DNA of 32,000 bases. It comes from Promethearchaeota archaeon. GTDB lineage: Archaea; Asgardarchaeota; Lokiarchaeia; Sigyniarchaeales; SOKP01. Numbering within the stretch: the first letter of the stretch is position 1; every line of letters starts with the position of its first letter. The stretch spans positions 90,001 to 122,000 of the forward strand of contig JAUWGH010000002.1 in the NCBI GenBank assembly GCA_030606485.1, written 5' to 3'. Made by a program: the position numbers and the translations under genes. Positions 17,832-22,926 of this stretch are shown here, one piece after another. A model generated the notes under the pieces. The model was not told the origin of the DNA and ran no database searches. It saw only the letters and a list, made by a program, of their open reading frames with translations.

Positions 17832-19295
17832 TTATTCTCCAATTTTAGTGCCACAAACTCCACAAAATTTGGCTTTTGCTGGAATTTTACTACCACAATA
17901 AGCACAAATCTTGGATTTTGCTGGTGTAGTTATTGAAGAACCACCGACTGCTCTTCCTTCTCTTTTACCTCCACAATTCCGACAAAATTGGTCATTCGGT
18001 TTAAGTTCTGAACCACAACGAACACAAGTAACTGATGGTGTAGGTTTTACCTTTACATATGGCGATTTAGCTGATGGTTTAGAAGGTGCTTTTGCTTTCA
18101 GTTTCTTTTGGCTTCTTCTAGCTAATACTGCTGCAATAATGACTATACAGACGATTATTCCGATTATTATCAATATTGGTCGAAAGTCAATCCATCTATC
18201 AATAGAATTAACCCCTGTATCGTAACTCACATCAAAAGTAACTGATGTGGATTCTTCTGGTGAATTCATTGGGTCGAAATAAACGAAAAAGTACCAATTA
18301 CCATCATTAGGAGCAGTGATTGAGGTTTCAGAAATCATATCGACTGCTTCCACATAATATTCTGCCTCTGTTAGGTCTATTACGTCAGTAGCAGTATAAT
18401 TAACAATAAATTCAACATCAACTGCAGTAATTTCTTTATTATACCATACGAGATAATAATCCTTAGCTCCCATAGATGCAGTAATTAATAACGATCCGCT
18501 ATCTGCCATTGTACTATTTATTTCTAATTCGAATGAATAACTATCATACGAGTTCCATTCATTTAAATTATATCCATCAGCAATGAAGAAATCTATAGGA
18601 TTACTCGCATTAAAATCATAATCAATTGTCGATCCTGGTTTTAAATATAGTGAATAGTACTCATAGCCATCAGAATGGACAAGAAATTGATCACTAAAAG
18701 ATCCAGACTTAGTTGTTAAAGGGAATGATTCAAATGGTTGATCCCAAATGGCAAAACTGATTTTACTGGGCGATGATTGGACAGAAAAAGTGATTTCATT
18801 TCCTTGATTTATATTTTCATATTCATACCAATATTCATTATAATATAATGTCTCCGTTGAACGATAATTTACAACACCAGATGTATCTGCATTACCAAAA
18901 GGAAATGCCATAGCAATACCGAGTAATGGAAGTGCTATCAATGCAAATATAATAATAAAAATTATACCTCCACCAACGTATACAGGAGAATAATACCAAG
19001 GGCGATAATAATACCCTGACCACCAGGGATGATACCACCATCTTCGGTACCAAGGTCGGTAATAAGGGTAATACCAATGTCTGTAATGTCTACCATAACG
19101 TCTATAAGATCTGTGTCTATAAGGTCCTTGTGTGCTTCTAGTTACTGTTCGTCTAGCACCTGTTCGACCAAAAGGTCTTCCACTCGTACGTCCACGACTA
19201 CTTCGAAAACTGGCACCACCCCCACGAAATCCACCACCTCTAAAACCACCGCCACCACGACTACCACCACCACGACCACCGCCACCACGCGGCAT
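17832..19295 (-). CDS. Two-TM membrane protein: N-terminal RGG/aromatic-rich tail, beta-rich extracytoplasmic domain, C-terminal double zinc ribbon
   Basis: The start is reassigned to the ATG at 19295 (MPRGGGGRGG...), which follows the upstream stop as TAA-A-ATG. TM1 is IIFIIIFALIALPLLGIAMAF and TM2 is ILIIIGIIVCIVIIAAVLA. Zinc ribbons: CVRCG..L.PNDQFCRNCG and CAYCGSKIPAKAKFCGVCG. Confidence 0.85.
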   Translation of the reverse strand: MPRGGGGRGGGSRGGGGFRGGGFRGGGASFRSSRGRTSGRPFGRTGARRTVTRSTQGPYRHRSYRRYGRHYRHWYYPYYRPWYRRWWYHPWWSGYYYRPWYYSPVYVGGGIIFIIIFALIALPLLGIAMAFPFGNADTSGVVNYRSTETLYYNEYWYEYENINQGNEITFSVQSSPSKISFAIWDQPFESFPLTTKSGSFSDQFLVHSDGYEYYSLYLKPGSTIDYDFNASNPIDFFIADGYNLNEWNSYDSYSFELEINSTMADSGSLLITASMGAKDYYLVWYNKEITAVDVEFIVNYTATDVIDLTEAEYYVEAVDMISETSITAPNDGNWYFFVYFDPMNSPEESTSVTFDVSYDTGVNSIDRWIDFRPILIIIGIIVCIVIIAAVLARRSQKKLKAKAPSKPSAKSPYVKVKPTPSVTCVRCGSELKPNDQFCRNCGGKREGRAVGGSSITTPAKSKICAYCGSKIPAKAKFCGVCGTKIGE

Positions 19296-19296
19296 T

Positions 19297-20310
19297 TTAC
19301 ACCGACACCTCAACTGTGGAAGACTTAGAAATTCCTTTTTGACGGAACAAATAGTTACGATTGATAGCCAGAAGAAATAGTAATATAGAAGTAATTGACA
19401 TAAATAATCCTATACCATCAATCAATACATTAACAGGAGGTGCTGCAGTCATAAATCCAATAATGAAAAATACCCATTCAAGAATCATAAAAACAATAAT
19501 TAACCATGGAATCACTGTTCGCACAATTCGCCCTGTTTTAATATTCCTAGCATCAGAAAAACTTGTATAAATTAAAGAGAATAAACCTATAATACCTATA
19601 ATTAGTATTGAGAAACTACAAGTAACTAATATTGCCCATATAAAACCATTCCTAGCTATTAAATTACTTAATGGAAAAAAGAAATCCGTACCACGCGCTT
19701 CAAATAGATAAAAAGTAATTTCTCCTCCTCTAATTTCAGCCATGCCAAAGAAATTCATGAGATCTGTTTGATTTGCAGAAAAGTATCCAAAAACTCCAAC
19801 AAGAGGTAAAAGGATACCTAAAACAAATGCCAATATTGAACATACACTAGTAAACCAAAATTCTGCGTTTTTGGGATCGGCAACTGGAATAAGGCCTATA
19901 TCATCTTCACTTACATCAGGAATATAATCCCAACAGTCTTGAATTGTACATACACCAATAAGCTTTTCTTTTTCAACCACTGGAACTACATTAACTTGTA
20001 AATCGCGCATTCTTGTAAATGCTTCGAAAACGGGAGTATCTAACGACACAGAAGTAATTGTATACATTGCTGAAATTACCTTTGCAGATTTTGGGTCAAT
20101 ACCTTCTGCAACTACATTCTGGACAATATCAAAATCAGCTACAACCCCAAGGATCTTATTTGACTCCTTTTCAACTACTACTAAATCCGGCACTCCCAGC
20201 TCTTTCATTTTCTTGGCAGCATCTTGAATTGAGGCGTTAGAATCAATTATACCATATTCATCATCGATAATTAAATCCCGGACAAAATATTCTTTTTTAG
20301 ATTTGCTCAT
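19297..20310 (-). CDS. CBS-pair (Bateman) domain protein with C-terminal multi-pass membrane domain
   Basis: Two CBS repeats (IDSNASIQDAAKKMKE..VPDLVVVE...ILGVVADFDIV; VSLDTPVFEAFTRMRD..VNVVPVVEKEKLIGVCTIQD) followed by about 4 TM helices. The ATG at 20310 is preferred over the TTG at 20322. Confidence 0.85.
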   Translation of the reverse strand: MSKSKKEYFVRDLIIDDEYGIIDSNASIQDAAKKMKELGVPDLVVVEKESNKILGVVADFDIVQNVVAEGIDPKSAKVISAMYTITSVSLDTPVFEAFTRMRDLQVNVVPVVEKEKLIGVCTIQDCWDYIPDVSEDDIGLIPVADPKNAEFWFTSVCSILAFVLGILLPLVGVFGYFSANQTDLMNFFGMAEIRGGEITFYLFEARGTDFFFPLSNLIARNGFIWAILVTCSFSILIIGIIGLFSLIYTSFSDARNIKTGRIVRTVIPWLIIVFMILEWVFFIIGFMTAAPPVNVLIDGIGLFMSITSILLFLLAINRNYLFRQKGISKSSTVEVSV

Positions 20311-20417: not shown

Positions 20418-21044
20418 TTAAATAAAAACTTCCTTTTGTATTTTTACGTAATTATTATACTCCTTTAACTCACTTGATATAAGTTCATAAATAATCTCAT
20501 AAATCTGCCGAAATAATTCATCATGAAAAATCTGCATTTCAAAAATTGTCATAGTAGTTAGTTTTTCACTTAAAAGCTGTGCATCTATAGGAATACTACA
20601 GTAAAAAAATTGCATCAATGCCTCCTGACACTCCTTTTCAACAATATTTTTAATAATTTTCAAACCCAAATCGAGTGGGTCCAAAAAATATGGATAATTT
20701 CTATCATCTAAAATTTTCCTGAAACCTAACTTCTTGATTATTTCATTAACACAATAATCAAGAGAACCCTCCTCAATCATATATAAACCACAAAACTTCG
20801 ATTTTTTCTTGTGCATTGGGAAAGATAAGGGATGACGCTGGGCAATATATAAAGCAGCAACAAAATAATTTAAAATATTCTGAGGAATTTTTCCTTCCTG
20901 TAAATATCGAAACATAATTGAAGATGTATAAACTGAGATTTTTTTCGGAACTCCAAGATCTTCAAGATGCGATTGTCCTTTATTAATTATCTCAACAATT
21001 ACTCTCTCTTTTGTATTAATTAATTCCAACATCCAACCACACAA
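20418..21044 (-). CDS. Hypothetical protein with a single cyclin/TFIIB-like helical repeat
   Basis: YFVAALYIAQRHP...KFCGLYMIEEGSLDYCVNEIIKKLGF resembles the TFB core repeat (AAALYIA..R...EIA....V.E.TI...Y..L...L). The start may be the ATG at 21032. Confidence 0.55.
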   Translation of the reverse strand: MCGWMLELINTKERVIVEIINKGQSHLEDLGVPKKISVYTSSIMFRYLQEGKIPQNILNYFVAALYIAQRHPLSFPMHKKKSKFCGLYMIEEGSLDYCVNEIIKKLGFRKILDDRNYPYFLDPLDLGLKIIKNIVEKECQEALMQFFYCSIPIDAQLLSEKLTTMTIFEMQIFHDELFRQIYEIIYELISSELKEYNNYVKIQKEVFI

Positions 21045-22098: not shown

Positions 22099-22926
22099 AT
22101 GAAACAAGATAAAACAACTAAAAATATTGATAATATTGGTAATGCTTTTCTTAAAATTGGTAATTTTATAATAATTGGACTTATAATTTTTGCAATTGGG
22201 TTTGCAATAAGTTTTTTTTAGATTTGGATAGGATGGGTCATTGGAAATTTTGTTAGTTTTTTTGTTTTTGGCTTTGTTTTTTTAGTTTGGGTTGTTGTGT
22301 TGTTTATTTTTTTTCTAATGGTTATTAGAATTTTAATTGCAGCGATAGCAATTCGAGAGAAGAATATTATTATATTTTCTATTCTTTACTTCTGTTCATA
22401 TTTAGCATTCTTAATTACTATAATTTTTTCGTCTAAAATAATTGTGGATTGGATAATTGATCTTTTTGCAAGCAGTAAATTATATTGGCCATGGGATATG
22501 ACAACAAGATTGTTTACAACCTTCTTAAACCCATTTTGGACAATTTATATTGGACTTAATGTTAATTTTTTATTTCAATTTGTTTCTTGGCTCTTTTTTA
22601 AAAATTACTTTGAAAATTTTCCTGGAACTTATAATTGGAAAAAAAAAGCAATTAAAAAGAGCAATTTAAATATGGTTTTTTCAGTAATTGGTATAGTTCC
22701 ATTTTTAAATCTCATTGCTTTCGTAATAATAGCCATAAATTTGTTTGGATTAGGAACCTCAATAAGTCTTATTTATATAAAAGATTCAACTCAACAAGAA
22801 CTAATCAAAACCACAACGGAAATGGCTACTGAGATCTCTACTAAACAAATTAAAAAATGTCCGAATTGTGGGAAATATAATAAATTTACTGCTGACTTTT
22901 GCATAGAATGTGGTAAAGAAATTTAG
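22099..22926 (+). pseudogene. Multi-pass membrane protein with C-terminal zinc ribbon, interrupted by an in-frame TAG at codon 41 (nonsense mutation, read-through, or consensus error)
   Basis: The ATG at 22099 has an SD-like GGGGCGTG and a TTTAAATA box at 22047-22054. It is in frame with ORF 22297..22926. The only interruption is TAG at 22219-22221. C-terminal CPNCGKYNKFTADFCIECG. Confidence 0.7.

Follow-up and report, generated by a model that had tools for sequence, protein, structure and literature searches.

The window analysed here, a stretch of 32,000 nucleotides from a Promethearchaeota archaeon (GenBank assembly GCA_030606485.1, contig JAUWGH010000002.1, positions 90,001 to 122,000 of the forward strand), encodes at 17832-19295 on the minus strand a protein of 487 amino acids (translated from the ATG at 19295). 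It is a two-pass membrane protein, in which an N-terminal tail is followed by a first transmembrane segment (TM1), an ectodomain, a second transmembrane segment (TM2), a Lys-rich linker and a double zinc ribbon (Table 1). Comparison of the homologous sequences indicates that residues 1-106 of this lineage-specific membrane protein form a cytoplasmic module under strong selection. Database annotation of the family does not go beyond 'zinc ribbon domain-containing protein', and literature searches on RGG regions and on phase separation or low-complexity regions in Asgard archaea returned nothing relevant.

The minus-strand open reading frame (ORF) 17832-19313 holds an ATG at 19295, one base past the TAA that ends the upstream gene. 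At 14 further loci the upstream gene stops 0-4 nucleotides (nt) ahead of ATG-CCN-CGN-GGN, which is preceded by a GAGGTG/GGAGG motif, and in a third taxonomic family stop and start are arranged in the same way, with some starts being GTG or TTG. As judged from this arrangement, ATG 19295 is the true start of the tail gene. The TTG at 19313 was rejected as start, as it lies inside the upstream gene and the conserved feature is the ATG together with the Shine-Dalgarno motif. Two plus-strand ORFs, 19029-19328 and 19132-19380, were likewise rejected as genes because conservation tracks the minus-strand frame; their Thr/Pro-rich products arise from the strand complementary to the GGT/CGT-rich codons of the tail.

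Table 1. Features of the tail gene and its surroundings (positions in the window; aa, amino acids)
Feature	Position	Strand	Remarks
Whole gene	17832..19295	(-)	487 aa; >300 homologues of 480-510 aa
GAR-like block, aa 1-30	19206..19295	(-)	five RGG/FRGGG units; MPRGGG N-terminus invariant
Ser/Arg/Thr-rich linker, aa 31-56	19128..19205	(-)	near-invariant (S)G-x-PFGRTG-x-x-R
Tyr/Trp/Arg/His/Pro block, aa 57-106	18978..19127	(-)	GPY-x-H, repeated RPWY / SPWW; abuts TM1; 46% aromatic
TM1, signal anchor, aa 107-131	18903..18977	(-)	GGG, then hydrophobic helix; no conserved signal-peptidase site
Ectodomain, aa 136-366	18198..18890	(-)	acidic; predicted all-beta, pLDDT about 90
GOLD-like beta-sandwich, aa 196-305	18381-18710	(-)	inside ectodomain; from structure comparison of the model
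TM2, aa 373-392	18120..18179	(-)	hydrophobic helix
Lys-rich linker (RRSQKK...) and double zinc ribbon, aa 393-487	17835..18119	(-)	two CxxC...CxxC units; predicted on cytoplasmic side
Shine-Dalgarno-like GAGGTG	19306..19311	(-)	within 3' end of upstream gene; conserved before ATG in other genomes
CBS-TM partner gene	19297..20310	(-)	337 aa; acidic CBS pair and four TM helices; upstream of tail gene

Composition, conservation and distribution of the tail

The tail (residues 1-106) carries five RGG motifs (R3, R8, R13, R19 and R24) with gaps of 2-3 residues, a spacing that fits the pattern of RGG boxes. Tri-RGG regions are defined by at least three RGG units with 0-4 residues in between, and the spacing within the tail falls inside this definition. 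Residues 1-110 contain 27 Gly, 23 Arg, 16 Tyr, 9 Ser, 8 Pro, 7 Trp and 4 His and no Lys, Asp or Glu; 16 Tyr, 7 Trp, 10 Arg, 6 Pro and 4 His are found within residues 57-106. The aromatic fraction amounts to 46% in residues 57-106 and to 55% in residues 76-106, and the aromatic residues occur in clusters, polar spacers being scarce. An earlier note on this DNA had described five RGG motifs, a block with 16 Tyr and 7 Trp and the absence of Asp and Glu ahead of TM1, and upon retranslation these counts proved exact. In the 3.75-Mb genome, which yields 14,745 six-frame ORFs of 50 aa or longer, no other ORF exceeds three RGG motifs, and the tail is the densest and most extreme Tyr/Trp window. Genome-wide, Lys and Arg are used at a ratio of 72:28, and the remainder of the protein outside the tail contains 21 Lys versus 9 Arg, whereas the basic residues of the tail are 23 Arg and no Lys (P about 2e-13). 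The composition of the tail is far beyond chance. Its exclusive use of Arg in a Lys-preferring genome points to a guanidinium-specific role, i.e., contacts to phosphate/RNA or cation-pi contacts. AlphaFold2, run with a 30-sequence alignment, gives a pLDDT below 50 for residues 1-81 and 86-104 and no confident fold, so that the tail is predicted to share the disorder of RGG-box regions. A feature search of the ESM Atlas with residues 1-135 gave no usable match.

A word-indexed search yielded over 300 homologues with a length of 480-510 aa, of which 121 were retrieved; their sources are labelled as Lokiarchaeota/Promethearchaeota, Hodarchaeota, Hermodarchaeota or Heimdallarchaeota. All 121 possess a tail, about 111 aa long, besides the two TM segments; it contains on average 18.3 Arg, 0.02 Lys, 0.01 Asp+Glu, 29 Gly, 14.6 Tyr, 7.8 Trp and 4.5 RGG motifs. 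The number of RGG motifs ranges from 0 to 8 per called protein, low counts being due to truncated gene calls, and the few homologues that do not start with MPRGG have GTG or TTG starts or are truncated gene calls as well. Conservation among Asgard orthologues had been set beforehand as a check on the earlier note, and the tail is kept in all orthologues found. Invariant or nearly invariant are the motifs MPRGGG, G-x-PFGRTG-x-x-R and GPY-x-H and, just ahead of TM1, RPW..RWWY-x-PWW-x-G-x-YYRPWYYSP; the conservation of the tail is positional as well as compositional. Across 116 sequences the mean frequency of the top residue is 0.84, 0.76 and 0.78 in the three blocks of the tail, compared to 0.66 in the ectodomain, 0.53 in the linker and about 0.70 in the zinc ribbons, i.e., the tail is the best-conserved region of the protein. 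Within the aromatic block an identity of at least 90% is reached in 24 of 50 columns of these 116 sequences, whose overall identity is 50-60%. In 14 genomes, each of the 31 invariant tail columns other than Met and Trp is encoded by several synonymous codons (mean 3.4), and the target of selection is therefore the protein rather than a repeat in DNA or RNA.

In a survey of 251 genomes sampled across the phylum, the gene was detected in three families, namely f1 (41 of 54 genomes), f2 (4 of 5) and f25 (14 of 16), the last of which belongs to another class, and in none of about 170 genomes from some 25 other families. Nearly all matches outside small contigs span residues 1-485 of the query and thus include the tail. 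A profile built from the tail only, compared to 1.84 billion representative proteins, returned ten matches, all from the same family; the tail is therefore a family-specific module. The same comparison detected no sequence relationship to eukaryotic RGG proteins.

Topology, folded domains and the adjoining CBS gene

Averaged over the family, the tail carries 18.5 Lys+Arg versus 0 Asp+Glu, the ectodomain 5.3 versus 34.6 and the region past TM2 10.7 versus 2.7. No signal-peptidase site after TM1 is conserved in the homologues, the residue equivalent to -1 being F, L, I or W, and no AxA is found. Owing to this charge pattern (N-in/C-in) and to the lack of a conserved cleavage site, both the tail and the zinc ribbons are placed in the cytoplasm, as the earlier note had proposed for a protein with two TM segments. 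Removal of the tail as a signal-like peptide, which that note had named as an outcome that would speak against its proposal, does not agree with an n-region of 106 aa and with the lack of a conserved small residue at -1; by these features the segment does not resemble a cleavable Sec/Tat signal peptide. An N-x-S/T sequon at N229 is kept in 89% of the ectodomains.

At the C-terminus the Pfam family DZR (PF12773) scores 38.3 bits, above its cut-off of 27.3, and Zn_Ribbon_1 is above its cut-off as well. DZR is matched in 30 of 30 members, and the eight Cys residues (four CxxC pairs) are invariant in these 30 sequences. At 22297-22926 (+) of the window, another multi-TM protein ends in a single zinc ribbon (sub-threshold Pfam matches), and the many weak zinc-ribbon matches in related genomes suggest a large, promiscuous class of membrane-anchored zinc ribbons in these archaea.

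Residues 196-305 of the predicted model superimpose on the GOLD domains of p24beta1, p24gamma2 and TMED1 (VIA Z 13.3, 12.8 and 12.6) with a root-mean-square deviation of 1.4-2.1 over 87-94 residues and a Foldseek probability of 1.0. In the model this region thus adopts the GOLD beta-sandwich as far as the fold is concerned; a sequence-family match to GOLD was not found. The GOLD-like sandwich is nested within a second beta-sandwich of the ectodomain. Outside the family, the nearest clusters in the ESM Atlas are the plant APD1-4 RING E3 ligases, with TM-scores of 0.31-0.44; a literature search on these proteins gave nothing but unrelated papers. Pfam APD1-4_N matches the protein with an E-value of 5.6e-4 and 20 bits, which is below the cut-off of 27, and gives sub-cut-off matches at E <= 0.01 in 11 of 30 members (best 5.3e-6); APD1-4_M is not among the Pfam matches listed for this protein. 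In the place of a RING finger a double zinc ribbon is found, with a weak match to zf-C3HC4_3 (E 0.4). The f25 orthologues (L032-L035; genomes G132, G166, G159 and G231), which are 550-557 aa long, add past the double zinc ribbon a finger with eight ligands, C-x6-H-x9-C-x2-C-x4-C-x2-C-x12-C-x2-C, that matches zf-RING_4 weakly on P0124 (E 0.0097). With this finger the layout comes nearer to an APD-like arrangement of TM, domain, TM and RING. The ectodomain may act as a sensor, as the earlier note had assumed.

The tail gene is co-operonic with the gene of a CBS-domain membrane protein (CBS-TM). The CBS-TM gene lies directly upstream in 21 of 21 loci across three taxonomic families, and in the window its stop sits 1 nt ahead of the ATG of the tail gene. 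Its product consists of an N-terminal CBS pair (Pfam 2.5e-14; Foldseek matches to many CBS pairs) followed by four TM helices. The CBS pair is acidic, with 22-31 Asp+Glu versus 12-18 Lys+Arg in 13 orthologues. The 4-TM domain shows no match to a solved structure or to a named Atlas cluster beyond its own Promethearchaeota family. Prediction of a complex between CBS-TM and the tail protein resulted in scores of 0.28/0.19 compared to a mark of 0.32, run without controls, and speaks neither for nor against binding. Apart from the CBS-TM gene, no neighbour is conserved at the loci examined. Upstream of the gene pair, a 208-aa ORF with no Pfam match is found at 20418-21044 (-); it stands beside the CBS gene only within the genus (L001, L004).

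Possible roles of the tail

The reading preferred here, tentatively and with somewhat less than even confidence, is that the tail is a predicted two-part module, with a distal arm for the binding of polyanions, probably of RNA, and a proximal block positioned at the membrane interface. The distal part (residues 1-56), composed of FRGGG repeats and an RS-like stretch with the fixed PFGRTG, would be a flexible arm with Arg as its only basic residue, held at the membrane and able to bind a polyanion, RNA being the most likely one. The Tyr/Trp/Arg/Pro block (residues 57-106) would be located in the cytoplasmic membrane interface beside TM1, where it may pack on neighbouring copies or on a partner protein via Arg-aromatic contacts. 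While the analysis shows the composition and conservation of the tail, its location on the cytoplasmic side, its restriction to this family and the operon, we infer RNA as the ligand, the interfacial position and any coupling to the ectodomain or to the CBS partner. The binding of RNA by RGG/RG regions is of degenerate specificity (PMC5570134). For Trp/Arg peptides it was shown that the aromatic residues embed in the bilayer interface and Arg touches the lipid head-groups (PMC2937036), and the C-terminal half of E. coli RNase E is a prokaryotic precedent for a disordered region that is tethered to the membrane and carries Arg-rich RNA-binding segments (PMC6954427). Both cytoplasmic ends of the tail protein carry motifs that are often nucleic-acid-binding elsewhere, i.e., the RGG repeats and the double zinc ribbon. 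The number of repeats varies in the RGG part, whereas the aromatic part has fewer insertions and deletions, limited to its middle, which fits two parts under different constraints.

For residues 57-106 the Wimley-White interfacial dG is about -16 kcal/mol, the most favourable of the hydrophilic 50-aa windows in the genome, as estimated with no account taken of archaeal ether lipids. The search for longer fused forms recovered a single protein, P0130 (875 aa), a singleton from one ENA contig of 3419 nt that could be a misassembly. It possesses a zinc ribbon and TPR repeats in place of the RGG and linker parts and retains the last ~30 aromatic residues, TM1, the ectodomain and TM2, and the C-terminal ribbons are absent. 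If genuine, P0130 suggests a distal arm that can be exchanged and a proximal block that goes together with the membrane core. The retained aromatic residues, the position of the block next to TM1, its strongly favourable interfacial energy and the extreme positive-inside bias would also agree with a tail that acts only structurally or topogenically: the Arg-rich tail would set the N-in orientation and the aromatic belt would anchor or tilt TM1 and cluster the protein in the membrane, possibly shaping its curvature, with no soluble ligand involved. This is regarded as distinctly unlikely, as topology requires just a few basic residues and not 106 residues with fixed motifs, GAR-like repeats and no Lys at all.

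Several observations weigh against the two-part module. Besides the limits of the interfacial estimate and the singleton status of P0130, a second family of the same genome (see below) has a similar aromatic block about 170 residues past its last TM segment, and membrane proximity is therefore not obligatory for such blocks. A canonical PRMT domain was not found in the genome, which is 100% complete: Pfam PRMT5 gave no match, though the control genomes were matched, and PRMT_C gave no match in this genome nor in any control genome; other methyltransferases could methylate the Arg residues. Finally, the conservation at the level of single residues is unusual for RGG regions with degenerate RNA binding, and a specific protein partner fits it at least equally well.

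For this last reason the strongest rival is a docking array, in which the fixed motifs (the MPRGGG end, PFGRTG, GPY-x-H and the RPWY repeats) would be short linear motifs that fold upon a specific protein. Candidate partners are the acidic CBS pair of the co-operonic protein, the zinc ribbons of the protein itself or a cytoplasmic factor. The position-specific conservation of the tail exceeds that of the folded domains, its extreme N-terminus is invariant, and the genes for the tail protein and for the acidic CBS pair are adjacent and translationally coupled in 21 of 21 loci from three taxonomic families, all of which is in line with docking. However, the Arg-only and acid-free composition and the variable number of RGG repeats resemble a polyanion binder more than a set of discrete motifs, and the partners named are candidates. 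A docking array is considered rather unlikely.

The earlier note had compared the tail to FET- and fibrillarin-type regions, i.e., a sticker-and-spacer region that would nucleate RNA-protein condensates at the membrane. RGG repeats, Tyr and Arg are named as the main drivers in the grammar of phase separation (PMC10888811), and anchoring to the membrane would be expected to reduce the concentration needed. However, prion-like domains are 60-70% polar and 15-20% aromatic, their aromatic residues are evenly spread and their sequences vary widely in evolution (PMC9748015), whereas the archaeal block is 46-55% aromatic, clustered, almost devoid of polar spacers and fixed residue by residue, and no eukaryotic RGG protein is related to the tail by sequence, as judged from its profile. 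The FET-like model agrees with the tail neither in the fraction and spacing of aromatic residues nor in sequence drift; the likeness to FET-type condensate domains is not supported, and a nucleating role of this type is judged highly improbable. An aromatic density of this kind favours adsorption to the membrane or solid aggregation over liquid droplets.

A more far-reaching version of RNA binding can be envisaged, in which the protein would serve Asgard archaea of the Lokiarchaeia type as a receptor that uses its GAR-like tail to capture RNA or ribosomes at the cell membrane, or to cluster into a ribonucleoprotein assembly bound there, under the control of a CBS partner that senses nucleotides and of the GOLD/APD-like external domain. 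This is thought to be quite improbable.

Related systems, a second family and significance

Eukaryotic GAR/RGG-box regions, such as those of fibrillarin, GAR1, nucleolin and FUS, share with the tail closely spaced (F)RGGG repeats, predicted disorder, the use of Arg only and a variable number of repeats. In contrast to these, the archaeal tail is located at the N-terminus of an integral membrane protein and is continued by fixed motifs and the aromatic block. Tyr and Arg are abundant in this block as in the prion-like domains of FET proteins and hnRNPA1, but the latter differ in the aromatic fraction, clustering and spacers described above, and their conservation is one of composition only and not of position. 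The dense composition of Trp/Arg(/Pro) membrane-active peptides, i.e., the lactoferricin core RRWQWR, the combinatorial RRWWRF and indolicidin, is similar to the RRWW and PWW stretches of the block, and a preference for the bilayer interface is expected for both (PMC2937036). Unlike these secreted peptides, the archaeal segment comprises about 50 residues, has more Tyr than Trp, is joined to a TM helix and would act on the cytoplasmic leaflet of its own cell. The C-terminal half of E. coli RNase E is likewise a prokaryotic, disordered and membrane-held region with Arg-rich segments (PMC6954427), but RNase E includes a catalytic domain, relies on an amphipathic helix instead of TM segments, lacks such RGG repeats or an aromatic block and is not homologous. 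Apart from the tail, the protein resembles the plant APD1-4 ligases and the p24/TMED receptors in its order of TM, beta-rich luminal or external domain, TM and C-terminal zinc finger. It differs from APD1-4 in that this finger is a double zinc ribbon and not a RING, f25 alone adding a weak RING-like finger.

A genome scan revealed one other ORF of the same flavour. This second family, unrelated to the first, is represented by a 629-aa membrane protein (G000 C10:657522-659408 (-), equivalent to L016:2020-3909 (-)), the predicted cytoplasmic C-terminal region of which carries a Tyr/His/Trp/Arg/Pro block (PYWYPRYYWY...), then GGRGGRGGRGG and then the invariant end GGCACACACAGCACACAGGGR. Full-length orthologues from a dozen genomes (L017-L031; 39-92% identity) retain this Cys-Ala end in all cases but one. 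They also keep a PYWY-type aromatic block, which is much weaker in family f4, and the G/S/R-rich RGG stretch is variable, GGRGGRGGRGG being the form in this genus. Assignment of the L016 protein to DUF2207 was rejected, as no Pfam match was found. Lipidation or a metal site may be candidate roles of the Cys-Ala repeat end. Just upstream of and overlapping with the second-family gene, L016:3918-4304 (-) encodes a 128-aa protein with two TM segments and a zinc ribbon; a membrane zinc ribbon and an aromatic/RGG tail thus occur together at this locus, too, though on two different proteins. In this lineage, aromatic/Arg/Pro blocks are thus a recurrent element of the predicted cytoplasmic tails of membrane proteins.

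RGG/GAR regions are usually regarded as eukaryotic, and archaeal fibrillarin is not known to carry such a region. The tail represents an RGG/GAR-type region in a new setting, combined with an aromatic block for which no counterpart has been described. Only a few lineages among the closest archaeal relatives of eukaryotes possess the protein, the external domain of which resembles the eukaryotic GOLD/APD modules. If RNA binding or self-association of the tail takes place at the membrane, the protein would offer a tractable archaeal model of membrane-coupled RNA organisation and would also exemplify residue-level constraint on a 'disordered' region. If the tail serves as an interfacial anchor only, it would still constitute a new kind of juxtamembrane element. 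Should the reading as an RNA-capturing receptor be true, the protein would correspond in archaea to the RGG-based organisation of RNA in eukaryotes, placed on a eukaryote-like membrane-protein scaffold.

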